Notes: generated from the letters alone by a model not told the origin. Positions 2,366-60,600 are shown, counted from the stretch's first letter. The stretch: 64,000 bases of DNA from a virus (IMGVR_UViG_3300045988_087374); one strand, 5' to 3'. Program-made: numbers and translations.

Positions 2366-2387
2366 TTTTCACAGGTTATGCACTGCG

Positions 2388-2457
2388 AATACCGTTGTTT
2401 CCCCTTCGGGCAATATCAACAACAACAATTACAACAACGAAAATGGTGTTCGCCCAA
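2388..2457 (+). repeat. DGR-1 template repeat (TR)
   Basis: non-coding copy of VR-a/VR-b; AAY-rich (aacaacaacaattacaacaac); intergenic between avd and RT. Confidence 0.9.
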
Positions 2458-2560
2458 CATGGATCACATGCAGACAGAGTAAGCGTAAAGCTGAAATCAG
2501 AAAAGATACAAGCAAATGCATAACCTTTTCGCAATGGACAAATATAAAGGAACAAAATAA

Positions 2561-3580
2561 ATGGATAAAGAAATTGTTGCAAATTTTGAGAATTTATATC
2601 GTTCTTACAAAAAGGTTAAGAGCGGCAAGAGATTTAATTCAGGTACTGCAAGATTTTCTAATTTGTCTCTTGAAGGCCTTCATCTCTTGAAAGAACAATT
2701 GGAAAGTCAAACGTATACCATAAATCCGTATAATAAATTTCAAATTCATGAGCCAAAAGAGCGAACGATAGAATCATGTGCATTTAAGGACAAAGTAGTG
2801 CAGAGATGCTTTTCTGATTACATTCTGACACCGAAACTTGAAAATATCCTGATTAAATGGAACACTGCCGGGCAGCAAGGAAAAGGACAACACATGGCAA
2901 TGGACGGGTTAAGAAATCAAATGTTGGATTTCTATAAAAGAAATGGAATGAATAGTTGGATTGTAAAATGTGATATTCACAAATACTTTTATTGCATAGA
3001 CCATGAAATCATGAAAGATGTTTTGGATTATTACTTTGATGATGATTTTACAGTCTGGTTGAACCATTTGTTTATTGACAGTACAGGTAATCCCGGGCTT
3101 CCATTAGGAAATCAGGTAAATCAGAAGTACGCATTGTTGCTTTTACATTCACTGGATCAGATGATAACGATTGAATTTGGAAATCCATATTACGGACGAT
3201 ACAACGATGATTTTTATGTGATTTGTAAAACGAAAGAAGATGCCAGAGAAATTCTCGAAGCAATCCGAATGATGATTGAAAGTCTTAGACTGGAATTAAA
3301 CCCTAAATCACAAATTGTACCATTTCGCATGGGATTGTGTTATCTGGGCTTTCATCATTACGTGACTGATGAAGGAAAATATATCAGAAAATTGCGTGGT
3401 GATAAGAAAAGAAAAACACAGAGAAAAATCCGAAGATGGGTACGGGCAGTGAATGACGGGAAGATGTCGATGGAAAAATTCCATGAAAAATACGGATCAT
3501 GCAAGAATCATATGCTTCATGGAAATTGCACCAAACTATGTCATAGTATGGATTTAGAAATTGAAAGGAGAATGAAGTGA
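2561..3580 (+). CDS. DGR-type reverse transcriptase
   Basis: 339 aa; RT motifs incl. LPLGNQVNQ (GxxxSQ-like) and YGRYNDDF (YxDD). Confidence 0.9.
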   Translation: MDKEIVANFENLYRSYKKVKSGKRFNSGTARFSNLSLEGLHLLKEQLESQTYTINPYNKFQIHEPKERTIESCAFKDKVVQRCFSDYILTPKLENILIKWNTAGQQGKGQHMAMDGLRNQMLDFYKRNGMNSWIVKCDIHKYFYCIDHEIMKDVLDYYFDDDFTVWLNHLFIDSTGNPGLPLGNQVNQKYALLLLHSLDQMITIEFGNPYYGRYNDDFYVICKTKEDAREILEAIRMMIESLRLELNPKSQIVPFRMGLCYLGFHHYVTDEGKYIRKLRGDKKRKTQRKIRRWVRAVNDGKMSMEKFHEKYGSCKNHMLHGNCTKLCHSMDLEIERRMK

Positions 3581-38717: not shown

Positions 38718-40178
38718 ATGCCTAAAAAGGAGGACGGGGCAGTGGCAAGAAATAAATCAAAGTATATCGACCTCTGCCAAGGTGAATTTGGCAGAAAGGT
38801 AGCTTATACCGGAGTGAGCAGAATTACACCTAATAACGTCTTGAAAGTAATTGCAGATACCATCGGCACTCACAACAGGAACCGGACAATGATTGACTAT
38901 CTGTACAGATATTACAAAGGAGACCAACCAGTCCTGTACAGAGAAAAACAAGTCAGACCGGAAATCAACAATAAAGTATGTGAGAATCATGCACTTGAAG
39001 TTGTACGTTTTAAGGCATCTCAGACTTATGGTGAACCAATTCAGTTCGTCTGTAAGAAAAAGAATGCAAGTGAAGAAACCAATGCACAGGTGGACTTGTT
39101 CAACGATTATCTGGACGAAGCCAACGCAGAAGCCAGAAACATTGAGTTAGGAACATATCAAAGTGCTGTGGGAACTGCATACAAGTGTATTCTTCGCGAA
39201 GAGGACTGGACAAGCGACTCAGATATGCCACCGTTCAGATTATTCATTCCGTATCCTGGAGATTGTTACATCGTATATTCCAGAAATACCGGTAAACCAA
39301 TGCTTTCCGTGCAGATACTGAAAGATGAAGAGAATCAGCAGTATTATCAGTGCTATTCAAGGGCACAATACTTTATCATTCAGAACGGTAAAATCACAAC
39401 TTCGGGGCTGAATGGTTTTGGAGAAATCCCGATTGTTGAATATCCAAATAACCATGACAGGCTGTCAGATATTGAGATCGCAATAACTATGTTCGATACA
39501 ATCAACGTCATGCAATCAAACCGCATGGACGGAGTTGAACAGTTTGTGCAAGCATTCATGAAATTCAAAAACTGTGAAGTTGATGAAAATGAGTTCCTGA
39601 AGATGGTGAAACTGGGAGCTATATCCGTAAAAGACACAGGATCCGGTTGCCAGTCAGATGTAGAATTAATGACCGCGGAACTGAACCAGTCCGAAAGCCA
39701 AGTTGCAAAGGACGATATTTACAGCAATATGTTGATTGTTGAGGGGATGCCGGACAGACAGCAGAATACAGGCGGAGATACCGGACAGGCAGTATATCTT
39801 CGTAATGGTTGGGATTTTGCAGAACGTAGAGCCAAACTTGACGAACCATTTATCCGTGAAGCTGAGAAAATGTCTGCAAGAATCATTCTAAAGATCATAC
39901 GTAATACCACCGGTGATATAAAACTTTCCACCAGAGATTTTGATGTAAAGATTACCAGAAATCCAACAGACAATATGCTTGTTAAAGCACAGGCACTGGA
40001 TTATCTGGTTAAGAACAAGATACATCCGCTCATTGCATTGATTACTTGTGGATTATTTAGTGACCCGCAGAAAGTATACGAAATGAGTTTTCCGTATATG
40101 CAATCTTTGTACGAGAATCCAGAAGAGGAAGTGCAGAAAGCACAAGCCTTGCTTACTAAGGATGTGGTTACTGAATGA
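38718..40178 (+). CDS. portal protein (SPP1 gp6-like); start may be GTG 38742
   Basis: size and position; AAGGAGG RBS lies inside the first 24 nt of the track ORF. Confidence 0.8.
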   Translation: MPKKEDGAVARNKSKYIDLCQGEFGRKVAYTGVSRITPNNVLKVIADTIGTHNRNRTMIDYLYRYYKGDQPVLYREKQVRPEINNKVCENHALEVVRFKASQTYGEPIQFVCKKKNASEETNAQVDLFNDYLDEANAEARNIELGTYQSAVGTAYKCILREEDWTSDSDMPPFRLFIPYPGDCYIVYSRNTGKPMLSVQILKDEENQQYYQCYSRAQYFIIQNGKITTSGLNGFGEIPIVEYPNNHDRLSDIEIAITMFDTINVMQSNRMDGVEQFVQAFMKFKNCEVDENEFLKMVKLGAISVKDTGSGCQSDVELMTAELNQSESQVAKDDIYSNMLIVEGMPDRQQNTGGDTGQAVYLRNGWDFAERRAKLDEPFIREAEKMSARIILKIIRNTTGDIKLSTRDFDVKITRNPTDNMLVKAQALDYLVKNKIHPLIALITCGLFSDPQKVYEMSFPYMQSLYENPEEEVQKAQALLTKDVVTE

Positions 40179-41944: not shown

Positions 41945-42982
41945 ATGCCATTTAATGTATTAGAATCAATTACACAGGAAGAAAGATTTAACTTCTCTCA
42001 GGATTTCAGCGTAAAAAGACCGGGCATTCTTGATACCATTTTCCCGGATGTCAAAACCCAGTACCTGAAAGCTGAATACTACAGACTTATGGCCGGACAG
42101 CGACTGCCAGAGGTAGCATTTGTTCATGCACTTGATACCGAGGCAGAGATCGGCTCCAGACCGGGATTCGAAAAAGTGCTGACTGAAAAACTCTTCATCA
42201 AGAGAAAAATCAATCAGTCTGAGAGATTACAGCAGGCAATTGAAAATGGTGTGCCGGACGATGAACGTCTGAAGAGATTTGTATTCGATGATGCAGCCAA
42301 CCTGTTCGAAGGCGTTATTGCCAGAGCAAATGTTATGAAAGGCCAGTTCCTTTCTACAGGTGCCGTAAAAGTCAAAGAAAACAATGTAGATCTGAATATT
42401 GATTACGGCGTACCGACTGGTGCAAAAGTCACTCTTACAGACTGGTCTAGTCCAGATGCGGACATCATGGGTGATATTCAGAAGATGGTTGCAGTTGCAG
42501 AGGACAACGGTTTTGTTGTAAATAAGGCACTCACATCCCTCAAGATGATTAACTACATGAGAAACAATACTGCTATGCAGACAGCAGTTCTGGGAGCGGC
42601 AAATAAACGGCTCCTGACAAAACAGGAACTTGTAAACCTCATCATGCAGGAATATGGATTTACCATTGATCGCTGTGATGAGAAATTCAGATACAGAAAA
42701 GCAGATGGAACACTGAAAACCGGAAGATACTTCAAAGAAGATGTATTTACCCTGTATGAATCCGAAGCAAATGGTTCTTTCGGTACAGGACTCTGGGGCG
42801 TTACACCTGAGGAACTTGAATACAGACAGTTCGTTCAGGAAGAAAACCGTTCTTTCGTAACACTGTCCATGTGGGCTACACAGGATCCGGTTGCAGTATG
42901 GACAAAAGCATCCGGTATGTTCGTTCCTGTTGCACCAAAAGCCAACGGAGGTATCGTGATCGGTACCAAAGCGGGGGAATAA
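41945..42982 (+). CDS. major capsid protein (lambda gpE-like family)
   Basis: 345 aa, position, strong AAGGAGG RBS. Confidence 0.8.
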   Translation: MPFNVLESITQEERFNFSQDFSVKRPGILDTIFPDVKTQYLKAEYYRLMAGQRLPEVAFVHALDTEAEIGSRPGFEKVLTEKLFIKRKINQSERLQQAIENGVPDDERLKRFVFDDAANLFEGVIARANVMKGQFLSTGAVKVKENNVDLNIDYGVPTGAKVTLTDWSSPDADIMGDIQKMVAVAEDNGFVVNKALTSLKMINYMRNNTAMQTAVLGAANKRLLTKQELVNLIMQEYGFTIDRCDEKFRYRKADGTLKTGRYFKEDVFTLYESEANGSFGTGLWGVTPEELEYRQFVQEENRSFVTLSMWATQDPVAVWTKASGMFVPVAPKANGGIVIGTKAGE

Positions 42983-45227: not shown

Positions 45228-46040
45228 ATGATGAATGGTTCTAATTACAGTCTTAGCGACATTGCCGCCGCTACAGGCTCTAATAACCGTGCCAATGACA
45301 TGTGGGGCGGTGATGGTTTTTCACTTATCTGGCTCGTACTGATCTTCGCAATCTTCGGATGGGGAGGTTTCGGCGGCTGGGGCGGTGGCTTCGGTGGTAA
45401 TGGTGGAAACGGTGCAAATGGTGCAGGATTCCAAGGATGGGCTACACGTGCAGATATCAATGAGAGTTTTGCTCTTAACGATATTCAGAATGGTATCAGA
45501 GGTATTCAGCAGGGCATCTGTGACAGCACATATGCTCTCAACAATACCATGCAGAGTGGCTTCAACGGCGTGAACGTTGGAATGCTTCAAGGCTTCAATG
45601 GCGTTCAGCAAGCAATTAACGCTGATACAGTGGCTAATATGCAGAACACAAACGCATTGCAGTCTCAGTTAGCAAATTGTTGCTGCGAAACAAGAGAAGC
45701 TATCCAGGGTATCAACTACAACCTGGCAACCAACACTTGTGCTCTCCAGAACACAATGAACAACAACACCAGAGACCTTATCGAAAACCAGAACAGCAAT
45801 GCTAGAGCAATACTTGACTTTATGGTAAATGATAAGATTGCAACGTTACAGGCTGAGAACTCTGATCTGAAACGTGCTGCATCTCAGGATCGCCAGTCTG
45901 CATTACTTACAACTGCTATGGCTTCTCAGACTCAGCAGTTAATCAATGCAATCAATCCGGCAGCTGTTCCGGCATATGTTGTTCCTAATCCGAACACCTA
46001 CTACGGTGGATGCAACGGATATAACAACGGTTGCTGCTAA
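45228..46040 (+). CDS. Gly-rich TM (YjcZ-like) N-terminus fused to an N/Q-rich domain with Cys-rich C-terminus
   Basis: LIWLVLIFAIFGWGGFGGWGGGFGGNGG...; ends GGCNGYNNGCC; AAGGAG RBS. Confidence 0.6.
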   Translation: MMNGSNYSLSDIAAATGSNNRANDMWGGDGFSLIWLVLIFAIFGWGGFGGWGGGFGGNGGNGANGAGFQGWATRADINESFALNDIQNGIRGIQQGICDSTYALNNTMQSGFNGVNVGMLQGFNGVQQAINADTVANMQNTNALQSQLANCCCETREAIQGINYNLATNTCALQNTMNNNTRDLIENQNSNARAILDFMVNDKIATLQAENSDLKRAASQDRQSALLTTAMASQTQQLINAINPAAVPAYVVPNPNTYYGGCNGYNNGCC

Positions 46041-47630: not shown

Positions 47631-47873
47631 ATGGCAAAAGCAGAGAACACAGTAATTTTTGATGGAATCAAGTATAATCCCGGTGACGAATTGCCGGATT
47701 TAGGCAGTTGGGTATGCACGGACGCAAGAGGCATGGTTCGTGATTATGAGGGACTTTCAAAAGACGTGTCAAAGCTCCCACATTATGTACAGAGCGGTTC
47801 TTCGGCATTATGTCTTGATACTTCTGAATTATACGAATATCACAAACCTACCGATACATGGTACAAACTGTAG
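47631..47873 (+). CDS. tail-fibre N-terminal module (paralog of residues 1-80 of ORF 51818)
   Basis: shared NTVI.DG..Y.PGD..PD...C.D.R...Y.GLS.DVS.L...YEY...KL pattern. Confidence 0.55.
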   Translation: MAKAENTVIFDGIKYNPGDELPDLGSWVCTDARGMVRDYEGLSKDVSKLPHYVQSGSSALCLDTSELYEYHKPTDTWYKL

Positions 47874-47886
47874 GAGGGTGTGGAAT

Positions 47887-48279
47887 ATGGCATTAACAGC
47901 GAAGAAAGTGTATGCAATTCTAAAACATCAGATTTCCGATATGGAAGCAAAATTAAATAGTCCTGTCACATACAAAGGAACGGTCGCATCAGCTGATTTA
48001 CTTCCTTTGAATCCGTCGATTGGTGATATGTACAATATCGAATCCGAGTCAATTTACGGTGAAGCTGGAACAAACGTAGCGTGGAACGGTTCTAAGTGGG
48101 GAACAATGGGCTCACCAATTAAGATTCCATCAAAAACCAGCGAATTGCAAAACGATTCAAGATTTGTTACTGAAACAGATTTGCAGAATGCTTTAGGAAA
48201 GAAAGCAAACGGAGAAGGAATCACTTTAAGCATTAACGAAAATGGTGGTCTTAGAGTAACATATAACAACGGAAAATAG
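47887..48279 (+). CDS. tail-fibre-associated protein
   Basis: AGGAGGG RBS; GDMYNI...NVAWNGSKW fibre-like motif. Confidence 0.5.
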   Translation: MALTAKKVYAILKHQISDMEAKLNSPVTYKGTVASADLLPLNPSIGDMYNIESESIYGEAGTNVAWNGSKWGTMGSPIKIPSKTSELQNDSRFVTETDLQNALGKKANGEGITLSINENGGLRVTYNNGK

Positions 48280-48290
48280 GAGGTATCACA

Positions 48291-49802
48291 ATGGCAGAAG
48301 TGGCAGTAGATGTAGCTATGGAGTCAACTTCACAAGAAATTCTTAATTTACTCAAAGTAGTAAAAACTATGGTGACAGATGTATCGAAATTTGATTGGAA
48401 AAATTTTTATCAGCAGACAGCAACAGATGAAGTATTTTCCACAAAGTTTTATTATTACGAAACTAGCACTAGCCCTAAAGGTGAAAGAATGAATGCTTCC
48501 ATTGGTCTGACTTCGGTTCCGTCAACGGAAACGATCAAAGGGCAAGACGATTTCTCAAATCGTAGTGCGTTCCAAACTTTGGATTGCAATTTTGTGATTG
48601 ACGAAAATGAAAATAAAACACCTGTGGCAATCAAGGATGGAAATGGTTATTCGAATATTGGCAAAGTGGATGTAGGGGTAATGGTTCCGCTGACTTACTG
48701 GGGAATCCAAAAGTTTGATACGTACTACATTGTGCATTTTGCAACCAGACCACATCCGGAATTAGAATGTACTACAGTAACTCCATGGTGTAACGAAGAA
48801 CTTGGATATGGGATACTGACAAAATATTATGCTGGACAAATTGATGGAATTCTGTATTCTTCTTCTGGAAATCCAATTTTTAATTTCGTTTCAGCACAGT
48901 CAGGAAATACGGAATTACAGAAGAAAGGGACGGGGTATCATGGGTCTGGGGCTGAACGTACCGCATATTTATTGTGTATGTTATGGATAAAATATGCAAC
49001 GAAGCATAGTCAGTCGGTTTTTCAAGGATGCTCTGGTTATAATTACCAATACAAAGTTGCACAGCCGGATGAGAACGTGGACTATGTGATTCTCACGAAC
49101 GCACAAGCGAACAATCTTTATGTTGGAGGAACCGTTTCGATTGGCGATGCAACAGGCCACGCAGATAATCTTGACCGTGGAAATGCGTACATGAGAAACA
49201 TTGCTGATAAAGTTAAAATTGCAAAGATAGAAACTATTTCTGGAACTTCAAACAGCAAAGTATATGTTGAAAAGGCAGGAATGACAATCACAGCAGATAC
49301 CTATGTTTCCTCTATGCCGTTGCATTCTGGGACAACTGACAACGTTCTTGGTAGCGACGGATATGTGGTAAACGATAATAAGCACGCGTTTAAATTAGGC
49401 GGCATCGAAGATATGGTTGGCGCATATTTCATTTCCATGGATGAATTGTGGAATAAAACAACTGCAAGTACCGTTGATTATTATGTCCGTGGAAAATCCG
49501 CATGGTCTGCAACCGCTTCTGGATGGATAAAGGTTGCAACCGTAGACTTAGGAGGCTCTGATGACTGCTGGATTGGCGACATCGAAATTGATCTCAATAC
49601 GGGTGCTGTCTGGTTAAAAACAAAAGGTTCAGGAGATTCTGTTGGAACCGGTGACAGACAGTATAATGGAGGCACGGGAACAGGCTGGCGCGAAGCACTG
49701 CGGCGTGGCGACCTCGGGAGCTGGTCGAGTGCCGGTCTTTCCTACGCGAGTCTCGGGAGCGGCGTGGCTCGCTCGGGGTGGTTCTGCGCCCTCTGCGTTT
49801 GA
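48291..49802 (+). CDS. DGR-2 target: receptor-binding / tail-fibre protein with a C-terminal variable region
   Basis: the last 33 codons coincide with VR-2. Confidence 0.85.
   Translation: MAEVAVDVAMESTSQEILNLLKVVKTMVTDVSKFDWKNFYQQTATDEVFSTKFYYYETSTSPKGERMNASIGLTSVPSTETIKGQDDFSNRSAFQTLDCNFVIDENENKTPVAIKDGNGYSNIGKVDVGVMVPLTYWGIQKFDTYYIVHFATRPHPELECTTVTPWCNEELGYGILTKYYAGQIDGILYSSSGNPIFNFVSAQSGNTELQKKGTGYHGSGAERTAYLLCMLWIKYATKHSQSVFQGCSGYNYQYKVAQPDENVDYVILTNAQANNLYVGGTVSIGDATGHADNLDRGNAYMRNIADKVKIAKIETISGTSNSKVYVEKAGMTITADTYVSSMPLHSGTTDNVLGSDGYVVNDNKHAFKLGGIEDMVGAYFISMDELWNKTTASTVDYYVRGKSAWSATASGWIKVATVDLGGSDDCWIGDIEIDLNTGAVWLKTKGSGDSVGTGDRQYNGGTGTGWREALRRGDLGSWSSAGLSYASLGSGVARSGWFCALCV
49702..49800 (+). 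repeat. DGR-2 variable repeat (VR)
   Basis: aligns to TR 49892-49990 (offset 190); 18 of 19 differences at TR adenines. Confidence 0.9.
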
Positions 49803-49838
49803 TTCCGCACCTTTTAGGGGTGAATTTTGCATAGCAAA

Positions 49839-49856
49839 AGAGGGGATTGCCCCTCT
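49839..49856 (+). other. GC hairpin with a 4-nt loop downstream of VR-2
   Basis: agagggg-attg-cccctct, not followed by a U-run. Confidence 0.5.
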
Positions 49857-49891
49857 ATAAAATAAAAAAATAACATAGGACTTGCCGCACG

Positions 49892-49990
49892 GGCGTGGCA
49901 ATCTCAGGAACAGGTCGAATGCCGGTCTTTCCTACGCGAATCTCAGGAACGACGTGACTAACACGAGGTGGAACTACGCCCTCTGCATTT
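49892..49990 (+). repeat. DGR-2 template repeat (TR)
   Basis: intergenic; its VR-frame translation is Asn-rich (aat/aac codons). Confidence 0.9.
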
Positions 49991-50213
49991 TTATGCTCGA
50001 CGGAGCAATTTAGTACATTGGTACTTTTTCGTGTGGCATTTCGTGGATGGAATTCCATTACCATAATGGTACTTAAATAGGAAATAGAAAGGGAATCGAA
50101 ATCCCGACGGGGATAACGATAGTTTATGCGTAAGGCATAAGCTGGGGCTAGTAGAAATCCGAACGTCTCTCGGAATTTAAACGATAAAATTCACTCAAAA
50201 GGTAGTTGTATAA

Positions 50214-51407
50214 ATGAAACGTTGTTGTAAGAGAATAAATATAACTGATAGAAATTTAATTGAGAGAGCTACAAAAGAATGCTTACATGGGAAAATGAAC
50301 AGAAGTGACGTTATTCGAATGTTTTCGGAGTATTCCGGTGTTTCATACAACGTAATAAAGAAGATATGCAAAGACAAACGTATGATGAACGGAGTAATAC
50401 AGACGGTTGTTGATGGTATTCAACAGGAGATCATCAATAAGAAATACATCGTAAAGCCTATCCGTTACAGAAAACAAGTTGATAAGTGTAATGGTAAAAT
50501 CAGAAATATTGGAATTCAGGATATCAAACAGCAGATTTATGATTATATTGCCGTTTACGCAATGGACGAATTGTTCAGAAAGAAACTGGGATTTTATCAG
50601 TGTGGAGCATTGAAGAAAAAAGGAAATGAATTTGGCTCAAAAGCAATTAAAAAGTGGGTAAATAACCATAACATGCGGTGGGCTTGGCAGGCAGATGTCA
50701 GGCATTATTACGAAACTATCCCAAAGCATAAATTGAAGCACCTTCTTTCCAGAGATATTGACAATCCTGATATTTTACATTTGGTATTTTTCTTGATTGA
50801 TACTTTTGATGGTGGGCTTTCAATCGGTTCATATCTCAGTCAGTATCTTGCTAATTACTATATGAGTTACGCATATCATTATGTGAGCGAACAAATCATA
50901 AAAACAAGAAAACATAAGAGTGGGAGCGTTAGTACCAGAACCTTGATTTCACATTCATTGTTTCAGATGGATGATGTTTTATTTTTGTCCAAAAGTCTTA
51001 AAGACTTAAAAATGGCAGTGAAACAATTCTCAAAATACATCAAGGAATTTTTGGGGCTGACTCTTAAAGATACATCAAATTTTATAGACTTGAGAATGGG
51101 GTATATTGATATTCTCGGAAGAAAAGTTTCCAGAAGAAGTCTGACAGTTCGCTCTTCAAATTTTATCCGTTTCCGCAGAACCGCAAGCAGAGTGAGAATC
51201 TTAGTGCGTCAGAATAAAAATATTCCATTATTGCTGGCAAGGAGCTATATCGGGCGGTATGGTGCTATTAAACATTCTGACACAAAGAAGTTCCAAAAGA
51301 AATATCACGTACCAGAAGATTTGAAAAGATGTAAAAATATCGTTTCTGCATATGAAAGGAGAATAAACAGACATGAAAGCAATGCGATTTACTTTTCCCC
51401 AACTTAA
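50214..51407 (+). CDS. DGR-type reverse transcriptase (second copy, divergent)
   Basis: LSIGSYLSQYLANYYM (IGxxxSQ), FQMDDVLFL (xMDD), ADVRHYYETI. Confidence 0.85.
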   Translation: MKRCCKRINITDRNLIERATKECLHGKMNRSDVIRMFSEYSGVSYNVIKKICKDKRMMNGVIQTVVDGIQQEIINKKYIVKPIRYRKQVDKCNGKIRNIGIQDIKQQIYDYIAVYAMDELFRKKLGFYQCGALKKKGNEFGSKAIKKWVNNHNMRWAWQADVRHYYETIPKHKLKHLLSRDIDNPDILHLVFFLIDTFDGGLSIGSYLSQYLANYYMSYAYHYVSEQIIKTRKHKSGSVSTRTLISHSLFQMDDVLFLSKSLKDLKMAVKQFSKYIKEFLGLTLKDTSNFIDLRMGYIDILGRKVSRRSLTVRSSNFIRFRRTASRVRILVRQNKNIPLLLARSYIGRYGAIKHSDTKKFQKKYHVPEDLKRCKNIVSAYERRINRHESNAIYFSPT

Positions 51408-51690
51408 TACTTCCATCTATCAACTGGATAAAGGCATGGATGTTATGATCTGCCTTAATGAAAGACAAGTTATTGCTGAAAATCCAGATGGTATCTCGGA
51501 AATAATGTATGAGTATGACGGAAATATTTTTCGTACATTTAAACTGACCGAAGAAGAAATTATGCGAGAACCAGAAAAATATCTGGACTACGAAGGAGAT
51601 ACTGAACCCACAGAAGAAATGACTCAATATGCAAACGAAATGATAGATGCCTATACAGAACAATTAATTTCGGAAGGAGTGATTGCGTGA
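51373..51690 (+). CDS. acidic hypothetical protein
   Basis: 105 aa, overlaps the RT 3' end. Confidence 0.5.
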   Translation: MKAMRFTFPQLNTSIYQLDKGMDVMICLNERQVIAENPDGISEIMYEYDGNIFRTFKLTEEEIMREPEKYLDYEGDTEPTEEMTQYANEMIDAYTEQLISEGVIA

Positions 51691-51818
51691 GAATTTTAGT
51701 TGAAAGTCTGAGAAGAATGTACGCGAATGGAAAAATAACAAAAGAAAAGATTGAAAGCATGTTGATTTTGACAGAAGCAGAGAAATATTACATACTTTCA
51801 TCGAAAGGAGAAGAATAA
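51687..51818 (+). CDS. XkdX-like small protein (43 aa, not in track)
   Basis: GTG start overlapping the previous stop; ...YANGKITKEKIESMLILTEAEKYYI. Confidence 0.45.
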   Translation: MRILVESLRRMYANGKITKEKIESMLILTEAEKYYILSSKGEE

Positions 51819-53851
51819 TGGCAATTGCATTAAATACAGTGATCGTTGACGGTCAAGAATATAAACCGGGAGATGTGATTCCAGACTTCAAGAGTATCAA
51901 ATGTGTTGATACGAGAGAACCACGAAAATATCAGGGATTATCTGCGGATGTTTCTGTCCTGAATGATGTTATTGCAAAATACGCTTCGGGCGGGGCATCC
52001 TGTTTTATGTCCGATACGGGAGAATACTATGAGTATGATCGCAAGGAAAAGACATTTAAACTTATCACCAATATCACAGAGCGTGGATTTGGTTCCGAAA
52101 AAGCGTATGGCGCGTTAAAACATATGCTTAAAAATGTGACTGTAAGTGATGAGAAGATACAAAGTGCTGTCACGGATTATCTGAGGGTAAATCCAGTCCT
52201 TCCCGGAGCCACCACAGAACAGGCACAACAGATCGAGCAGAACAAGACAGACGTTGCTTCACTGAAAGAGGAAACTGGTTCGCTAAAGGAAGATTTAGGA
52301 AACATAATGGATAATGTAAATCCGTTAACCTGGAACGATGGTTTTATGCTTCAAGATGGAAAAGCTGTTGCTGCTGATGGAAGAAGTGTGTCTGATTTTT
52401 GTTTATGTCCAGCAGAAACGCAAGTTGAATATATTTCTGAAACAGCAAATCAGTATGTACAAGGTATCGTTTTTTATGATAAATATAAAACACCTATTAT
52501 CGGATATGCTAACAATGGTAAAGATGAAGAGCCATGCACAGTTACATCGCCTAAAGGCACATATTATCTTAGATTAAGTGTGGTGAATAGTAATATTGAT
52601 AAAGCATATTTCAAGAGTAGCACACCAACTGTTAAAAGTTTTATCGAAAGAAATTCTAACCGTTTGATTGCTGCACAGGATACAGATTTTGCAGAAATTG
52701 AAGTGACAAATTATATGCTTATTTGCGATATCATCAAAAATAAATCTTATGTAGTAACCAATAATGTGTATAACGGTTTACAAGATAGCGAGAATAAAGA
52801 TTCTTCAACACTATGTATTCTTGATAAAACAAAAGACATGTATGCCGGGAATAGGTACAATGTGGATGTGATATTTTTTGATTCAGACAGAGAATTTATA
52901 TCATCAACTAATGCATTGTATCATGGGACAAAATTAACAAAAGAACAGTATCCATCAAATGCAAAATATGTTGCATTTACATGGGCGAAAGATGCTGTAA
53001 TTGCAGATAAAATGTATGTTTCTACTGTAGATAATGGATGGCAAACCGGATTGCCTGCACTTAAATATGGAAAAACAATCAAGTATAAAGGGCAAAGACC
53101 AAACATTAATATTTATAATTCAGATACACAAGAAGAAATATTTGATAAATTAGCTGATGCTTGCTATACACAGGATTGCGACGTGTATTTTGAAAAGGGT
53201 ACTTATATTTTTGATGCTATTTATGATAAAATCAAGACTTATTACAATAGCGTTGGAGATGCATTTGAAATGCTTTTAGGTGGGAACTGTCGATATTATA
53301 TGTATGGATGTACATTCAAAGGTGATTTTACAAATAGTACTGGTAAACAATCAACATTCGGTTCTCATAGACATGCAGGAAGTTATGAAATATTTGGTGG
53401 AACAATTATTTGTGTAGATGGCACTTATTGTGTACATGATGAAGTGAGTGGCGAAGAACTAATTAGTGTTAGAAAATATCATCATGTTACATTCAAATAC
53501 GTCAAAGGTAGCACTTATTCTAATTGGTTATGTAAATGTCTTGGATGTGGTACAGGAAAAAATACAATTACAATTATTGATGGCTGTTATTTTGAATCAG
53601 ATAATGATTTAAGTGATGCCGAAGCAAGTTGGCATGGTAATCTTGAAGATAATTCGGCTTGTGAAACATTTGTTGAAGTAAAAAATTCATATTTCAAGGA
53701 CAAAGGTTTTTATGTGGATGCTATTCCATCAGAATCTAAACAGATGGGTAAAATTATATTTTGTAACAATTCTGTTAAAAACAGATTACCTACAGAATCA
53801 AATGGATGGATTTTGGCTGGATGGAATAACGAGGTTCGTAGCACTAATTAA
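51818..53851 (+). CDS. tail fibre / receptor-binding protein
   Basis: 677 aa; N-terminus paralogous to ORF 47631. Confidence 0.6.
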   Translation: MAIALNTVIVDGQEYKPGDVIPDFKSIKCVDTREPRKYQGLSADVSVLNDVIAKYASGGASCFMSDTGEYYEYDRKEKTFKLITNITERGFGSEKAYGALKHMLKNVTVSDEKIQSAVTDYLRVNPVLPGATTEQAQQIEQNKTDVASLKEETGSLKEDLGNIMDNVNPLTWNDGFMLQDGKAVAADGRSVSDFCLCPAETQVEYISETANQYVQGIVFYDKYKTPIIGYANNGKDEEPCTVTSPKGTYYLRLSVVNSNIDKAYFKSSTPTVKSFIERNSNRLIAAQDTDFAEIEVTNYMLICDIIKNKSYVVTNNVYNGLQDSENKDSSTLCILDKTKDMYAGNRYNVDVIFFDSDREFISSTNALYHGTKLTKEQYPSNAKYVAFTWAKDAVIADKMYVSTVDNGWQTGLPALKYGKTIKYKGQRPNINIYNSDTQEEIFDKLADACYTQDCDVYFEKGTYIFDAIYDKIKTYYNSVGDAFEMLLGGNCRYYMYGCTFKGDFTNSTGKQSTFGSHRHAGSYEIFGGTIICVDGTYCVHDEVSGEELISVRKYHHVTFKYVKGSTYSNWLCKCLGCGTGKNTITIIDGCYFESDNDLSDAEASWHGNLEDNSACETFVEVKNSYFKDKGFYVDAIPSESKQMGKIIFCNNSVKNRLPTESNGWILAGWNNEVRSTN

Positions 53852-56290: not shown

Positions 56291-56770
56291 AGGGCACGAT
56301 TAACAACGCTTGGTGTAAAATTTTCATACGCCGTTGAAACGGTAAAAGGTACAAAGCCAGCTAAATTCACACAGTTGGAAGAGGCTTCTTCCATCGGTGG
56401 CATTTCTCTTGAAACAGAACAGATTGACGTTTCCGCACTGGAAGATTATCTGACTCAGTATGCGGCAGGTAGACAGGACACAGGTGGTACTTGGGAGATT
56501 GAGTTTATCATGGATCCAGACAAATCCGTTAAACAGATCAAGAAACTGTACGAAGATTCTAAGAATGCAAAAACTACAGGACTGGCAACTTGGTTCCAGG
56601 TATCATTCCCGGATATGTCCGACGCATTCTTCGTTATCGCAGAATGCGGTCGTGAAATCCCAATGCCGGAAATTGCACAGAACGAAGCGGCAACCATGTC
56701 CATTTCTCTTATCATCAGTACTTATAAGGGACTGGACACCAAAGTTGAGCCTACAGCAGCTGCTGAATAA
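56291..56770 (+). CDS. major tail protein; proposed AGG start (track: TTG 56375)
   Basis: AAAGGAG 56278-56284, 6-nt spacer, AGG 56291; 28 in-frame codons (ARLTTLGVKFSYAVETVKGTKPAKFTQ) with no ATG/GTG/TTG. Confidence 0.6.
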   Translation, partial: RARLTTLGVKFSYAVETVKGTKPAKFTQLEEASSIGGISLETEQIDVSALEDYLTQYAAGRQDTGGTWEIEFIMDPDKSVKQIKKLYEDSKNAKTTGLATWFQVSFPDMSDAFFVIAECGREIPMPEIAQNEAATMSISLIISTYKGLDTKVEPTAAAE

Positions 56771-56792
56771 GATGTAAAACAGGGAGGTTATC

Positions 56793-57203
56793 ATGTTTAG
56801 TTTCTCAGTAAATGATAAAACATACAAAGTAAAATTCGGATATGGCGTACTTACCCAGTCGGATATTCTTACGCAGGTGTCTTCCATGGGAGAAATCACC
56901 AATCCGAAAGATATGATTAAAATGCTTCCAGAACTGATTCTGGCAGGGTTGCAAAGAAAACACAAAGACGAATTCGGGTACGAAACCGAAGAAGAAAAGA
57001 AAGTTGCGTATGAAAAGGTATGTGACCTTCTGGACGACTACGAAGATGAATCCACAGAGGAAAATCCTCATAATGGATTTACTTTATTTGAAAAAGCAAG
57101 TAAGGAGCTTGAGAAGAACGGTTTTTTATCCGGCATGATAAATGCAATGGAGAAAGAGGAGGAGAAACTTCCGAAGACTCCACAGGATCACAAGAAGAGC
57201 TGA
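56793..57203 (+). CDS. tail assembly chaperone (G-like)
   Basis: position before the tape measure; acidic C-terminus. Confidence 0.6.
   Translation: MFSFSVNDKTYKVKFGYGVLTQSDILTQVSSMGEITNPKDMIKMLPELILAGLQRKHKDEFGYETEEEKKVAYEKVCDLLDDYEDESTEENPHNGFTLFEKASKELEKNGFLSGMINAMEKEEEKLPKTPQDHKKS
57122..57128 (+). promoter_or_regulatory. putative -1 programmed frameshift slippery heptamer T_TTT_TTA
   Basis: X_XXY_YYZ in the chaperone frame; the -1 frame stays open to 57604. Confidence 0.5.
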
Positions 57204-57238
57204 CTTTTTCTGAAGTAGTCCACAAGAAGCTACTTCCG

Positions 57239-57604
57239 TTGTACTTATCAATCGGTGTTTCTGAAGAAAAGTTCTGGGATTCCACGCCATATGACCTTGA
57301 GCCATATCTCGATGCTTACAAATTAAAACAGCGGCAGTGGGATGCACAGGCATGGCAGTACAATATGTATACTATGTGCGCTGTCCAGACTGCTGTTGCG
57401 ACTGTACTTGTTGGCAAGAAATCCAAGGCGAAGTATCTTGATAAGCCATTCCTGCAAGATATACAAGAAGAACAGGAGAAAGGTGAAAATCTTTCTGAGG
57501 CAGAAAAGAAACGACAAAGAGAAAAATTACTTATGACTTTGCAACTTATGCAAGCGAATTTCGAACTGAATCACAGCAATGATGATGAGGGCAGGCAGGA
57601 TTAA
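57239..57604 (+). CDS. -1-frame extension of the tail chaperone (GT-like product); probably not independently initiated
   Basis: frame open upstream to the slippery site; no RBS at TTG 57239. Confidence 0.5.
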   Translation: MYLSIGVSEEKFWDSTPYDLEPYLDAYKLKQRQWDAQAWQYNMYTMCAVQTAVATVLVGKKSKAKYLDKPFLQDIQEEQEKGENLSEAEKKRQREKLLMTLQLMQANFELNHSNDDEGRQD

Positions 57605-57630
57605 AAGTCTTGTCTGCCCTTTATTTTTTT
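57589..57630 (+). terminator. strong hairpin plus U-run just upstream of the tape-measure start
   Basis: 12-bp stem gggcaggcagga/tcttgtctgccc, then tttattttttt. Confidence 0.6.
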
Positions 57631-57650
57631 GATTAAAAGGAGGTGGCTTA

Positions 57651-60600
57651 AGGGCTGATAATACCATAGATACTCTTGATATACAGATAACCAGTAGCAC
57701 CGAGAAAGCAGTGCAGTCAATCAGAAATTTATCCAAAAGTCTAATTGGATTGAATAAATCATTAGGAAGTGTTAATGCCAACGGAATCCAAAAATATGCA
57801 AATGAACTTCAAAAGGTTGTATCTGCATTTGATTCCTTGAACTCGAAAACTTCTGGATTGTCGACAGGGATGCAACGGGTTTCGGAATCATTATCATCTA
57901 TTGGAAAAGTAGATTTTAAAGAGACCGGAGTAAACTCATTTATCAATGCCATGAACCGTTTGGCTAAGGTGGATATGAGCAATTTCGATACTTCAAAACT
58001 TGGAAATATCGTATCTTCTTTGTCGGCATTGGCAAATATTCCGAATGTTTCATCCGGTGTAAATCGTTTTGTCTCTTCTGTGGCGAAATTAGCCGGGACT
58101 GGTGATTCTATCGGAACGGTTTCTAAGGAGATCACAAGCCTTGCGGACGCATTAAAAAGAGCAACCGAAAAGATGAGTACGGTTGGAGATGTTTCTGAAT
58201 CTGTCAACACATTTGTCCAATCTATTGCAAGACTGGCAAGTGCTGGAAACAAGACCGGGCAGACTGCAAGCCAGTTGTCTGTGTTGTCCAAGGCGTTACT
58301 TGATTTTTTTAATGCCATGCGTGATGCACCTAATATCAGTTCCGATGTTATCCGTATGACAGAAGCATTAGCACAATTGGCGAGAGCGGGTGGAAATATT
58401 GGAAGTTCCACCAGTTCTGTATCGAATTCGTTCAATACTATCAGCACTTCTTCTTCGAGGACGGAAATTGCTATACGAGGAATGTCACGGGTATTTTCCA
58501 CATTTGCTTTAAAGACGATTTCTCTTGGTCAAAAGGCTGCATCTGCAATCGCAAGGATTGGAATATCCGCGATCAATACCGCATCCAAGCTCAAGAAGAT
58601 GTCTGGAATTTTTACTACAATTAGCAACAAAATCAACAGCTTGTATATGCGAATGTTCTTCCTACAGAGGATTGGTTCTACACTGTTCAAACCGATAAAA
58701 TCAGCTGTCAATTATGTGGAAACTCTCAACTATTTCAACTCTGCATTCAAGCAAGTAGCTGAGAATGTGGATACGGACGAATGGAAGAAAAGTGGTATAA
58801 AATCCGCTGAAGCATATGCAGATTCGTTCCAAGAAAGAGCTAAGCAACTTTCACAGAAGCTGACAGGGTTTGAAGTTTCAGATACTGGCGAACTAACCAG
58901 AACCAATACTGCCAATCTTGGGCTTGACCCGGAAAAGACTATGCAGTATCAGGCAACATTTGCACAGATGGCATCTTCTATGGGAGATACATCGGAAACT
59001 GCGTTGAAGCTGTCAAATGCCTTGACTATGGTTGGCGCTGACCTTGCTTCTGTGCGAAACATGGACTTCGAGGATGTATGGCAGGATATGGCATCCGGCT
59101 TGACTGGTATGAGCCGTGCAATGGACAAGTACGGCATCAATATCCGTAATGCTAATATGCAACAAGAATTATACAATCTGGGAATTGACACCAGCATATC
59201 AAAGTTATCTCAGGCAGACAAAACAATCTTAAGAACGATTATTTTGCTGAATAACTCACAGTATGCATGGGGTGATTTGGCTAAAACGATTAACGGGTCA
59301 GTAGCGTAATAAATGCGTAGCTACTGGCAAGTCGCTCATATCGAAACCGACAAGTAGGGTATGAGTCATCAGTGATGAAATAAGCTGGAAAGCCGTTTGC
59401 AACGGTAATCAGAGAGTGAAGGCTGTGATTAAAACCGCAGTCAACCGCAACGCGTAGGAAGTGAACCTATAGTTGAGATACTACAGAATATAATCTTCCC
59501 AAGAGTCATCACTATCGGTCGGTACGGATGCAGAATCCGTGGTAAAAAGGTACGCTGGACTTGTACTGTAATGGTGCAGAAGTAAGGATAAAAAGCCTTG
59601 CGATAACAATTCGAGAACAGCCAGCAAACCAGATTCGTATGCTTCAATCTAACTTTGCTTCACTCGGAAGAACAATAGGTTCTTTGTTCATTCCTATACT
59701 GCAAACAGTTCTTCCATATATTAACGCAATTGTAATCGCACTGCAAAGAATGTTCGCTTATATCGCGAAACTTCTTGGTATTAAACTATCAAATTATGTT
59801 GCTTCTACGGGTGGAATTGCTGTTGATACAAGTAACATTGCAGACGAAATGGACAATGCCAGTGATTCTATTGATACTGCAAATAAGAATGCCAAAAAAC
59901 TTGAAAAAACATTATCTGTACTTGCTTTTGATGAACTGAATCAGCTTAGTGATAACTCTGATTCCAGCGGTACGAGCAGTCCGACATCCGGCACTGGCGG
60001 TAGTGCAGCACACCTTCCGGCATTGGATGCAGCACTAGATGCGGCTCTTGCCAATTACCAAAAGGCGTGGGACGAAGCATTCAAGAAAATGTCCAATAGG
60101 GCAAATGAGATGGCAGATGCTATTGTAAATGCTTTTAAGAAAAAAGACTGGAAAGGTCTTGGAAAAATAATGGCAGACGGCATCAACTGGGGAATGAAAA
60201 AACTCTATGATGCAATCAACTGGAATAAAGTTGGCCCGTATATTACAAAATTCACCAGTGCATTCACTCAGACGTTCAACAGCCTTGTCGATAATATCAA
60301 CTGGGACTTGATCGGACGTACTTTTGGAGCCGGTGTTAATACGATTGTTAATACAACAAATCAACTTTTAGAGGGAATTGACTGGAAGAACCTCGGGGCG
60401 AAGTTTGCTTCTGGAGTCTCAGGACTTGTAAGGGAAGTTGACTGGGAAAACTTCGGAAATCTTATTGGCAACTCTTTTATGCGTGGATGGAAAATCTTCG
60501 CGGGATTTGTCGAAAATCTTCCGTACAGCGAAATTGGTGTTGCTGTAGCAAACGGACTCAACGGAATTTTCCGTAAGATTAATTTTGCAGAGATTGCAGA

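Follow-up and report, generated by a model that had tools for sequence, protein, structure and literature searches.

The viral sequence IMGVR_UViG_3300045988_087374, of which the 64,000-nt stretch analyzed here is referred to as the window, carries a DGR at positions 787–3580 (DGR-1) with an Avd of its own (1994–2365) and two targets. A further set of repeats and a reverse transcriptase (RT) at 48291–51407 raises the question of whether the same phage has a second, complete and independently functioning DGR, and what accessory functions such an element would have at its disposal. We consider it very probable that this locus, DGR-2, is an active, accessory-less DGR residing in an inserted 4.2-kb fiber module and independent of DGR-1. 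All features of DGR-2 and its module described below are encoded on the plus strand.

The repeat pair and its reverse transcriptase

A repeat finder and a separate script of our own agree on a gapless alignment of the VR (49702–49800) with the TR (49892–49990, 99 nt) at an offset of 190 nt and with 81% identity; the homology ends abruptly at both flanks. The initial annotation, made by reading the sequence alone, had described the VR as the last 33 codons of a 503-aa protein with a TR collinear at this offset, and the computed alignment bears this out: The VR corresponds to residues 471–503 of the ORF at 48291–49802. Its other readings of the repeats were likewise recovered, namely, 19 differences with 18 of them at TR adenines (by our count 13 A>G, 4 A>T, and 1 A>C), a sole exception that is a T>C change at 49902/49712 in the third codon position, and, by translation, the sequence G-R-G-N-L-R-N-R-S-N...W-N-Y for the TR in the VR frame. 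The mismatches are thus adenine-biased on a computed alignment as well; no VR adenine is mismatched, and the probability of finding 18 or more of 19 mismatches at 24 adenines among 99 positions is 9.5e-14 (hypergeometric). When adenines are masked, the TR pattern has two sites in the 64-kb window, the VR and the TR themselves, where 0 are expected by chance, and the pair is the best match when the entire window is scanned in an unbiased, A-weighted manner.

In DGRs the TR adenines sit in AAY-type codons, which makes the resulting variation nonsynonymous and free of stops. Every one of the 24 adenines here falls, in the VR frame, on the first or second codon position, the TR contains seven AAY codons, and a stop codon is unreachable. 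The mutable part of the VR spans approximately 49710–49786 and comprises 16 variable codons (residues 474–499), so that TR-driven variation could generate some 1.4e13 protein variants. The 3' end of the VR (49787–49800, CGCCCTCTGCGTTT) is invariant and GC-rich, and is a candidate IMH-like boundary. One of the 18 adenine mismatches has to be set apart from the count: The pair TR 49987 A/VR 49797 G is fixed in all relatives (T/G in the sister clade), residue 503 being a valine in 15 of 15 proteins, and we read it as probably a boundary difference of the IMH/IMH* type and not a product of mutagenesis.

The RT of DGR-2 (RT2; 50214–51407) is encoded by an intact ORF of 397 aa with the IGSYLSQ signature and QMDD box already noted in the initial annotation, and is not truncated; IGSYLSQ fits the [I/L/V]GxxxSQ motif of DGR-clade RTs. 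It matches phrog_1423 ("Reverse transcriptase," E = 1.3e-49), as does the RT of DGR-1, and scores 28.8 bits against Pfam RVT_1, slightly under the gathering threshold of 29.6. Residues D161, D253, and D254 and the motif I-G-S-x-L-S-Q are invariant in a 44-sequence family alignment. The first residue of the catalytic YxDD box, here QMDD, is unusual; this Q is specific to one active subclade, and massive VR diversification is found in a sister clade that has QMDD too. An N-terminal domain of approximately 65 aa is conserved and specific to the clade, whose members come from Lachnospiraceae, other Clostridia MAGs, and gut phages. The structure model of RT2 (pLDDT 89.8) has as its best PDB match the Bordetella DGR RT (8ub7_A; TM 0.85, rmsd 3.1, E = 5e-16), and judged by this model RT2 is intact and has a DGR-type fold. 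The locus has every part of a complete DGR, namely, a target with its VR, a TR, and an intact RT of the DGR type.

The target, its module, and its place on the virion

The 503-aa target (48291–49802) matches phrog_17147 (E = 1.5e-65) and is modeled by AlphaFold with a pLDDT of 91.6 and a pTM of 0.90. The sole significant PDB matches of the model are chains of the variable protein TaqVP (5vf4; E = 3e-4, probability 1.0), with modest Foldseek TM-scores of 0.33–0.46 for the whole-target model. This match of the whole-protein model suggests that the target displays its VR on a C-terminal domain with a C-type-lectin-type fold, and that the 16 rewritten codons belong to the predicted ligand-binding surface. 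Matches in BFVD include collagen-like Siphoviridae proteins as well as entries labeled "tail collar fiber"; these labels are automated and add little.

DGR-2 lies inside a 4.2-kb block (47631–51818) that is missing as a whole from sibling phages: In three sibling loci (L235–L237), g47244 is directly followed by the homologue of g51818. The left edge of the block is formed by an 80-aa ORF (47631–47873), which has no Pfam match and for which tblastn shows 46–50% identity to the N-terminus of the g51818 homologues (the downstream 677-aa protein), pointing to a putative virion-anchor domain. Next comes a 130-aa ORF (47887–48279, from an ATG inside the listed ORF 47740–48279), which is found with the module in L045 (59% identity), is missing from L235–L239, and weakly matches one PHROG family of unknown function; it may serve the variable protein as a linker or shaft partner. 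The right edge is a 43-aa XkdX-like ORF (51687–51818) that has no direct Pfam match itself and is 49% identical to ORFs of relatives bearing PF09693 (Phage_XkdX). The order of the module is thus anchor-like ORF, 130-aa ORF, variable protein, TR, RT, an ORF in XkdW position, and XkdX-like ORF. From this arrangement, the module appears to be a tail-fiber-end unit inserted upstream of a second fiber-like gene with a common N-terminal anchor domain.

The initial annotation called the diversified region the C-terminus of a tail fiber. The C-terminal position of the VR stands; the tail-fiber identity is something we infer, the position of the gene in the window being noncanonical. Tail fiber and receptor-binding protein genes belong to the distal tail module, where they follow those of the tape measure and baseplate and precede lysis. 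The target gene is instead located between the gene of the major head protein (41945–42982) and the tail genes (56375–62710; a putative major tail protein, tail chaperone, and TMP), and because the tail genes lie downstream of it, where the protein sits on the virion is uncertain. The target might accordingly be a head-, neck-, or collar-attached fiber or decoration, serving as a surface adhesin and not as the primary receptor-binding protein. The "tail collar fiber" label of the BFVD neighbors would fit this, as would a weak match of a DGR-1 target to a Hoc-like head-decoration PHROG, which implies that the phage may decorate its capsid. In distant Bacillota prophage relatives, however, the homologous target takes the position of the last tail fiber, followed by RT, small ORF, XkdX, holin, and endolysin, and relatives possess collagen-like shafts; in L003 an N-terminal collagen-like repeat is fused to the homologous domain, and the top BFVD matches are alike. 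In addition, since the module can be inserted, its genome position may not reflect the attachment site. We regard attachment to head, neck, or collar as somewhat unlikely, and favor a host-recognition fiber whose diversification would widen or shift receptor binding.

Accessory functions and the relationship to DGR-1

Profile searches with Pfam, PHROG, and NCBIfam detected no Avd among the neighbors of DGR-2, a feature that the initial annotation did not mention. The same was true for 54 of the 84 ORF-cluster representatives from 49 RT2-type loci, scanned across flanks of up to approximately 3.5 kb on the upstream and 2 kb on the downstream side, in which a positive control was detected. Avd is present in about 74% of DGRs and does not strictly define them. 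Because Avd proteins are poorly conserved and the scan was limited to the flanks and to 54 of 84 representatives, a divergent or distant Avd serving DGR-2 is possible. By its gene content DGR-2 would be assigned to the accessory-less "architecture A" (A1), with target, TR, and RT on one strand and no avd, HRDC, or MSL found. ORFs resembling RNase HI or MutS are present at some RT2-type loci.

A candidate for a cassette-specific accessory that replaces Avd is the acidic 105-aa ORF at 51373–51690, which has no match in Pfam, PHROG, or NCBIfam. It is the most conserved neighbor of RT2-type RTs, its cluster being the largest among the small ORFs (42 ORFs from the 49 loci, including loci with an RT identity of 30–49%), and its 35-nt overlap with the RT stop suggests coupled translation; small acidic CH1 proteins, for which such a replacement of Avd has been proposed, moreover occur solely in avd-less DGRs (Wu et al. 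2018, PMC5758913). This resemblance is one of description, CH1 proteins being 160–169 aa in length and from Bacteroides, and the ORF product is acidic (pI 4.1 for the cluster representative), unlike the basic Avd proteins of Wu et al., for which reason RNA binding is unlikely. All homologues examined adjoin an RT. In relatives they occupy an XkdW-type position, between the last fiber gene and the XkdX, holin, and lysin genes (target, RT, ORF, XkdX, holin, endolysin), and a fiber-associated role combined with insertion of the TR and RT upstream explains the synteny equally well. A DGR accessory is therefore distinctly unlikely in our view, and gene order makes a fiber-associated gene the more likely reading.

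Less probable still, and very unlikely overall, is that DGR-2 is nonautonomous, with RT2 needing an Avd and borrowing that of DGR-1 in trans. The window does hold one clear Avd, at 1994–2365 (phrog_3206, 8e-24; NF033474, 1e-10), with none near DGR-2, and the RT of BPP-1 functions as a bRT–Avd complex (PMC6182149). RT2-type cassettes, however, diversify vigorously in phages without DGR-1: Among approximately 50 DGR-1-bearing IMG/VR contigs one alone also has an RT2-type RT, so that the two contig sets overlap by one. None of the 49 RT2-type loci is flanked by an Avd-like ORF in the scan described above, and tblastn with the DGR-1 Avd recovered no RT2-type GenBank record. For DGR genomes lacking avd, Wu et al. 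2018 (PMC5758913) likewise found no avd at a distance, and proposed that homing is independent of Avd. A common Avd partner is also unlikely because the two RTs are merely 21% identical.

This low identity (pairwise E = 0.003) agrees with the initial annotation, in which RT2 was only a distant relative of the DGR-1 RT. The statement that the two TRs share no similarity holds in practice, but not strictly, as 55 nt of them can be aligned weakly, at about 70%, with gaps and out of frame; the TRs and spacers of DGR-1 and DGR-2 nevertheless appear to be unrelated in sequence. Two distinct DGRs in one phage, as first proposed, are supported by these comparisons, and the suggested independent acquisition is supported by the single contig with both RT types and by the siblings without the 4.2-kb block.

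Diversification in the lineage, mechanism, and known systems

The most direct view of diversification comes from locus L044, whose RT is 99% identical to RT2: The VRs are 20% divergent, compared with 0–1.8% elsewhere, and 17 of the 20 nucleotide differences in the VR lie at TR-A sites, whereas the TRs differ by 1 nt. We also compared 15 members of the target's own 90% protein cluster (318 members), in which entropy rises from 0.05 over residues 1–470 to 0.91 over residues 471–503, and 16 of 17 A-containing TR codons vary. Targets with zero differences over the 470 N-terminal residues differ at 9–12 of the 33 C-terminal residues, exclusively in A-containing TR codons; different VRs on identical N-termini imply very recent turnover. 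A sister clade combines one identical TR with 21 distinct VRs, and the layout of VR, TR, and RT with A-only mismatches is found in all 5 GenBank loci and approximately 50 IMG/VR loci. The VR is thus hypervariable across relatives and the TR conserved, contrary to the invariance that the initial annotation had named as evidence against a DGR, and by these sequence comparisons DGR-2 is naturally active at the level of its lineage. That the copy in this genome is a recently inactivated relic of a formerly diversifying lineage is extremely improbable: The slightly subthreshold Pfam score of its RT would fit, but the RT ORF is full-length with all family-invariant residues, the exact protein recurs in different cohorts, on at least 23 contigs, L044 has the same or nearly the same TR, spacer, and VR-flanking elements, and turnover has been very recent.

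Two noncoding segments are conserved with the cassette. The intergenic region between VR and TR (49803–49891) contains three DNA hairpins, at 49808–49822, at 49826–49838, and, with the sequence AGAGGGGattgCCCCTCT, at 49839–49856, on which DNA folding and a pattern scan agree. It is nearly invariant in 7 loci, among them L002 with an RT of 48% identity, shows zero differences to L044, and folds as DNA with –12.4 kcal/mol (z = –3.05). By analogy with the post-VR hairpins of BPP-1 (PMC3240598), it is a candidate for a target-recognition element analogous to a hairpin/cruciform and, alternatively or in addition, for the 5' portion of the DGR RNA. The TR-to-RT spacer (49991–50213, approximately 220 nt) is a structured noncoding RNA segment with covarying helices at 49995–50006, 50043–50058, 50059–50071, 50120–50144, and 50158–50174 and an invariant motif, GGGGCTAGTAG, at 50144–50154; it matches no Rfam family. 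RNAalifold predicts 44 pairs, 15 of them with compensatory change. In control analyses 97.5% of cells are paired, compared with 28–49% when the partner is slid, both sides change in 16 pairs, and the observed values are attained in 0 of 500 shuffles.

If DGR-2 works like the Bordetella DGR, RT2 would reverse-transcribe an RNA that covers the TR (49892–49990) together with the structured spacer (49991–50213), the cDNA probably starting, as in BPP-1, within the GC-rich TR 3' end. RT2 would copy adenines unfaithfully, and the A-mutagenized cDNA would replace the VR (approximately 49710–49786) at the 3' end of the gene 48291–49802, probably guided by the IMH-like VR end and the conserved downstream hairpins. 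We further put forward, tentatively and as a combined proposal that may well fail, that RT2-type DGRs form a self-sufficient class that does not depend on Avd, in which the RT domain of approximately 65 aa and the spacer RNA of approximately 220 nt replace the role of the Avd pentamer, the invariant spacer motif GGGGCUAGUAG might base-pair with the 3' end of the TR, and the cassette acts as a plug-in "hypervariable fiber" module recombining at the common anchor-domain sequence. If this were true, one phage could stack two mechanistically different DGRs.

A genome with both an Avd-bearing and an Avd-less DGR offers a natural system for studying the role of Avd, and priming and homing without it. 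The cis elements of the RT2 clade are compact and well delimited (a VR end with conserved hairpins, a TR of 99 nt, and a spacer of approximately 220 nt that shows covariation), and are a good basis for reconstitution or for engineered targeted-diversification tools. The module insertion also illustrates how a single step can provide a phage with a hypervariable gene for receptor binding.

Among known systems, the DGR of BPP-1 (mtd-avd-TR-brt) resembles DGR-2 in its C-terminal VR on a receptor-binding protein of C-type-lectin type, a TR upstream of the RT with a noncoding spacer between them, adenine-only mutagenesis with about 1e13 possible protein variants, and GC-rich VR and TR 3' ends with fixed differences and hairpins downstream of the VR. 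The folds of the two RTs match (8ub7_A, TM 0.85) at a sequence identity of approximately 17%. DGR-2 differs in having no Avd between target and TR, an RT that is approximately 70 aa longer with a conserved N-terminal domain and a QMDD box, a spacer of approximately 220 nt compared with 144 nt, and a main hairpin approximately 38 nt from the VR, whereas that of BPP-1 immediately adjoins it. Architecture A, which makes up 29% of the DGRs surveyed by Wu et al. 2018 (NAR 46:11; PMC5758913), shares with DGR-2 the order target, TR, RT, the lack of avd, HRDC, and MSL, and a C-terminal CLec-type VR; the avd-less Lineage 3A of that survey is confined to Bacteroides, whereas RT2 relatives are from Clostridia and gut phages. 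TaqVP of Thermus aquaticus (5vf4) is, like the DGR-2 target, a DGR variable protein with a C-type-lectin fold, aligned over approximately 450 columns at 13–14% sequence identity, but is a 381-residue bacterial protein outside any phage fiber module.

A further comparison is with the gut-phage DGRs (hankyphage, Quimbyvirus, the crAss-like cr55_1, and Faecalibacterium phages such as FP_Epona), which share the gut virome with DGR-2 and in which CLec-type structural proteins are diversified, with adenine-specific VR variation between near-identical genomes (PMC8008677). The RTs and fiber proteins of cr55_1 and FP_Epona are distant matches of the DGR-2 proteins, with identities of 24–27% between RT2 and the gut-phage DGR RTs. 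There are earlier descriptions of DGRs in gut phages, of architectures lacking Avd, and of genomes with several DGRs, and the current picture of DGRs is unchanged by our findings. The described gut-phage cases possess a single RT, at times combined with two targets, whereas two unrelated complete cassettes, one of them Avd-less, are found here; DGR-2 is a well-behaved case of a known system, distinguished by its missing Avd and its insertable module.

The repeat pair and its variation in related phages

A repeat finder identified a direct repeat with two copies of 99 nt (VR, 49702-49800; TR, 49892-49990) at 190-nt spacing and 81% identity, and in an ungapped alignment at offset 190 the similarity vanishes at once outside both repeat limits. 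The computed alignment confirmed the collinear pair and the 19 differences of the initial annotation: 18 are TR adenines replaced by G, T or C in the VR and one is a T-to-C change at codon position 3 (49902/49712), with no mismatch at any VR adenine. The hypergeometric probability of at least 18 of 19 mismatches falling on 24 adenines among 99 positions is 9.5e-14. A TR pattern with every A replaced by N matches the VR and TR sites alone in the 64-kb window (0 expected by chance), and when the whole window is scanned with A-weighting this pair comes out on top, followed by the two VRs of the other element, DGR-1, and nothing further. The VR encodes residues 471-503 of the 503-aa ORF at 48291-49802, the last 33 codons as had been proposed, and the TR translated in the VR frame reads GRGNLRNRSNAGLSYANLRNDVTNTRWNYALCI and contains seven AAY codons. 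All 24 TR adenines occupy codon position 1 or 2, no stop codon is reachable, and the 16 mutable codons permit 7e13 variants at the DNA level and 1.4e13 at the protein level. The last mismatch (TR 49987 A/VR 49797 G) is unchanged across all relatives (T/G in the sister clade), with residue 503 being V in 15/15 proteins; because it is fixed in every relative, it probably marks the boundary past which the TR is not copied. In the prototype DGR of Bordetella phage BPP-1, the first base copied is G117 of the TR, in its GC-rich 3' part (PMC6182149), the DGR-2 counterpart of which is CGCCCTCTGC (TR 49977-49986).

An invariant VR across related genomes, the outcome named at the outset as speaking against the element, is clearly not what we found, the VR being hypervariable in relatives. 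Compared over 4.1 kb with L044, an IMG/VR locus encoding an RT 99% identical to that of DGR-2 (RT2), every non-VR segment is 0-1.8% divergent and the TR differs at 1 nt; divergence of the VR is 20% (20/100 nt), with 17 of the 20 differences at TR-adenine positions. The target protein cluster at 90% identity holds 318 distinct sequences, and for 15 of its members mean column entropy is 0.05 over residues 1-470 versus 0.91 over residues 471-503; in these, variation affects 16 of the 17 codons containing a TR adenine and just two further positions, a single time each. Pairs of targets identical throughout residues 1-470 show 9-12 substitutions among their 33 C-terminal residues. In the sister clade (RT 72%, target 80% identical), one identical TR occurs with 21 different VRs and other TRs with 6 and with 3, almost all changes lying at TR adenines. 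The order target/VR, TR, RT, with mismatches at A only or nearly so, is found in five GenBank gut-phage contigs (RT 29-72% identical) and is kept in about 50 IMG/VR loci; the exact A-masked 99-nt TR pattern had no match in IMG/VR, and a relaxed core pattern recovered 38 loci there. These comparisons indicate that DGR-2 is a genuine and complete DGR that is naturally active, as shown for the lineage.

The target has no Pfam or NCBIfam match and belongs by similarity to phrog_17147, a PHROG family of unknown function. The sole significant PDB matches of its AlphaFold model (pLDDT 91.6, pTM 0.90) are chains of TaqVP (E = 3e-4, probability 1.0, TM 0.33-0.46), the variable protein of a DGR in Thermus aquaticus, which has a C-type-lectin fold. 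In a viral structure library the top matches are Siphoviridae proteins whose N-termini are collagen-like (TM 0.87), and many further ones, including one from the crAss-like phage cr55_1, carry the automated names 'tail collar fiber' or 'tail fiber'. At L003, a locus in the 176-kb gut phage MT835469, the homologous domain is joined to a GDKGEKGDKGD collagen-like repeat.

Reverse transcriptase and non-coding elements

RT2 (50214-51407, + strand, 397 aa) matches phrog_1423 ('Reverse transcriptase', E = 1.3e-49), as does RT1 of DGR-1 (3.6e-88); it also matches the group-II-intron RT model TIGR04416 (1e-15) and reaches 28.8 bits with Pfam RVT_1, slightly below the gathering score of 29.6. Alignment of 44 family sequences shows no variation at the catalytic aspartates D161, D253 and D254 or in the motif I-G-S-x-L-S-Q, and the residue preceding MDD is Q in the subclade of the window and in the sister clade only, being Y, F, H or W elsewhere. 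Since the QMDD-bearing sister clade diversifies vigorously, the QMDD box is compatible with RT activity. The N-terminal ~65 residues (MKRxCKxxDITDRxLI...) are conserved family-wide and missing from RT1 (2561-3580), to which RT2 is 21% identical with many gaps. The best structural match of the RT2 AlphaFold model (pLDDT 89.8) is the cryo-EM structure of the Bordetella DGR RT (8ub7_A; E = 5e-16, rmsd 3.1 Å, TM 0.85 normalised on target), which outranks group II intron, G2L4, DRT9 and retron RTs. The ORF is intact, and the original description of DGR motifs and of a distant relationship to the DGR-1 enzyme is upheld. A strict RT motif regex over the window found RT2 and missed RT1, because the motifs of the latter are LGNQVNQ, against the usual [LIV]GxxxSQ, and YNDD, against YxDD with a hydrophobic x; DGR-1 was located via its repeats.

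Almost no variation is seen among seven loci in the 89 nt separating VR from TR; one of the seven is L002, which shows 48% identity to the window in both RT and target. Folded as DNA, this region forms three hairpins (-12.4 kcal/mol, z = -3.05), of which AGAGGGG-attg-CCCCTCT (49839-49856) is the strongest. Efficient homing in BPP-1 depends on a hairpin/cruciform directly 3' of the VR (PMC3240598), and by analogy we predict that the region serves in target recognition; another possible role is as the 5' part of the DGR RNA. The strong hairpin is followed by an A-run and not a T-run, and we therefore rejected a canonical intrinsic terminator for the target gene.

The 223-nt spacer between TR and RT has a conserved multi-hairpin structure. 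In an alignment of 13 sequences, in which independent covariation events are few because they fall into about four lineages, RNAalifold gave 44 pairs, 15 with compensatory changes; 97.5% of cells are paired versus 28-49% with the partner slid, 16 pairs are changed on both sides versus 2-4 when slid, and 0/500 shuffles reach the observed values. The helices best supported by comparative analysis lie at 49995-50006, 50043-50058, 50059-50071 and 50120-50144 (+ strand). Folded as a single sequence, TR plus spacer gives no significant result (z = -1.47), and it is comparative analysis only that argues for a structured TR-plus-spacer transcript. An invariant spacer motif, GGGGCTAGTAG (50144-50154), is kept even at 29-38% RT identity, and the GGGGCUAGUAG(A) region (50144-50155, + strand) is a candidate priming partner of the TR end at 49977-49986. 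RNAalifold pairs GUAGA (50151-50155) with UCUGC at the TR 3' end (49982-49986), a helix that never varies and for that reason is not backed by covariation. Its likeness to the Sp-TR fold-back from which cDNA synthesis is primed in BPP-1 leads us to the hypothesis that cDNA of DGR-2 would be primed in the same way. No Rfam family matches window positions 49600-50400.

The putative fibre module and its genomic setting

DGR-2 (48291-51407) lies between head genes, comprising the large terminase (36462-38198), portal (38718-40178) and major head protein (41945-42982), and tail genes, comprising the major tail protein (56375-56770, weak match), tail chaperone (56793-57203, weak match) and tape measure (57711-62710), and because of this order the target is outside the canonical tail-fibre position. 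The tape measure itself appears split into ORFs 57711-59309 and 59561-62710 with a 250-nt gap, both matching phrog_28918 and TMP families; a frameshift, an intron or intein, or a true division of the gene could account for this. Upstream of the fibre module and close to it, 45228-46040 encodes a protein of 270 aa rich in Gly, Asn and Cys (phrog_16490, unknown function), which contains a hydrophobic segment and GGxGG repeats and is 91-97% conserved among sibling phages.

Three sibling phage contigs have flanking genes 87-100% identical to those of the window, and one of the three also has an RT with 97% identity to RT1. All three carry a homologue of the 677-aa gene (window 51818-53851) directly after g47244 (the gene starting at 47244); relative to them, the window and contig 3300045988_058957 contain an extra block (window 47631-51817). 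The first ORF of the block (80 aa, 47631-47873) shares 46-50% identity with the N-terminal part of the 677-aa protein, a resemblance that suggests entry by recombination at shared anchor-domain sequence. At its right end are a 105-aa acidic ORF (overlapping the RT stop) and a 43-aa ORF, the latter without a direct Phage_XkdX match and XkdX-like only via relatives' ORFs that bear this Pfam domain (49% identity). The 80-aa ORF, a 130-aa ORF and the small acidic ORF have no match in Pfam or NCBIfam.

Homologues of the 105-aa ORF led to Bacillota prophages with a 503-aa target, an RT of ~415 aa, a small ORF, XkdX, holin, GH25 endolysin and integrase. The order from target to endolysin is the typical end of a tail-fibre module, and by this gene order we identify the module as a tail-fibre-end cassette with TR and RT embedded, unusually positioned in the window genome. 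The initial label of 'tail fibre' is a probable one, drawn from relatives; the position in the window is not canonical for a fibre gene. Among contigs with identical RT2 (including loci L338-L347), the downstream fibre gene varies, encoding 677 aa, 706 aa (with a GDSL/SGNH lipase domain) or 533 aa, and all versions have in common the N-terminal anchor domain that ORF 47631-47873 encodes on its own; these comparisons mark the locus following the module as a hot spot of mosaicism. One such contig, L338 (ena:ERZ28760864:contig_556), encodes the exact RT2 protein at ~327-330 kb, and because this lies inside 532,862 bp, the phage may exist as a prophage in a bacterial chromosome, which could point to its host. 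Relatives of the RT2 family come mostly from Lachnospiraceae and other Clostridia MAGs.

Two DGRs in one phage and the apparent absence of Avd from DGR-2

DGR-1 comprises two 201-aa targets arranged in tandem (787-1392 and 1389-1994; core mismatches at A only, 10/10 each) with VRs at about 1280-1344 and 1878-1946, the usual DGR helper protein Avd (1994-2365), a TR (2380-2465) and RT1; its target weakly matches a Hoc-like head-decoration PHROG. About 50 IMG/VR contigs, many of 75-80 kb, contain the TR1/VR1 core, in 59 stretches altogether; most RT2-type cassettes belong to a different phage group of 88-92 kb. RT1 has relatives at 121 loci (80 listed) and RT2 at 52, and the single contig common to both sets among the matches listed is 3300045988_058957 (75.9 kb), which gives same-contig support for both DGRs independent of the window; exact RT1 and RT2 proteins co-occur in two samples, yet on separate short contigs. 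The claim that the TRs share no similarity holds for practical purposes; a weak resemblance exists (2385-2440 vs 49915-49966; ~70% over 55 nt, ~39/56 columns), probably compositional (AAY-rich, CLec-core codons). Being gapped, out of frame and too interrupted, it offers nothing usable for cross-templating, which we rejected. The spacers of the two elements show no resemblance. Because the contig sets share one contig, the TRs are barely alike and the spacers are unlike, sequence comparison indicates that the two DGRs are separate acquisitions, as first proposed, and that their stacking is an exception in this phage group. We found no phage with two unrelated complete DGRs in the literature, which is absence of evidence only.

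ORFs around DGR-2 match no Avd model, in contrast to the DGR-1 Avd (phrog_3206, 8e-24; NF033474, 1e-10). We extended this to same-strand ORFs of 85-190 aa from ~3.5 kb upstream to 2 kb downstream of the RT at 49 RT2-type loci, 39 of them from Lachnospiraceae, Clostridia and other MAGs. They formed 84 clusters, of which 54 were scanned through a representative, with the DGR-1 Avd as control; TR-frame ORFs, ORFs in Arg-rich alternative frames and long ORFs made up most of the remainder. The control was the only sequence scanned to match an Avd family. A tblastn search with the DGR-1 Avd recovered no RT2-type GenBank record.

Three other ORFs at RT2-type loci should be noted. A 169-aa RNase HI-like ORF (phrog_531, NF001236) sits between VR and TR at L003 (3650-4159) and at L278, and is an unusual candidate accessory gene. 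At one MAG locus among L263-L301, a small MutS-N-terminal-like ORF (NF003810/TIGR01070; starting MMSKVIEKYNELKK...) adjoins the RT and recalls the 'MSL' accessory class, seen by Wu et al. only together with avd (PMC5758913). The small acidic ORF (window 51373-51690) directly follows RT2-type RTs and is conserved there (42 ORFs from 49 loci); with its homologues (L329-L337, L002-L005) it shares the motif EPEKYLDYEGD, belongs to no known family and takes the XkdW position before XkdX. We rate it an unlikely Avd substitute, as prophage relatives place it before XkdX, holin and endolysin.

Overall, the initial reading of a complete, active DGR independent of DGR-1 stands, with the provisos that the tail-fibre role comes from relatives and that the element is Avd-less. 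Its layout matches 'architecture A', the accessory-less type described by Wu et al. (2018), which accounts for 29% of DGRs; in genomes of this type those authors detected no distant avd, and they proposed homing independent of Avd (PMC5758913). What goes beyond the routine is the pairing of an Avd-dependent-type with an Avd-less DGR in one phage, a cassette gained by clean module-level insertion, the clade-specific RT N-terminal domain and QMDD box, and well-defined cis elements fit for experiments. Relatives of DGR-2 are abundant in public data, and its features are all within the described range of DGRs: a CLec-type C-terminal VR, architecture A, a gut-phage setting and a multi-DGR genome, several DGRs being present in ~10% of complete DGR-bearing genomes (Wu et al., PMC5758913).
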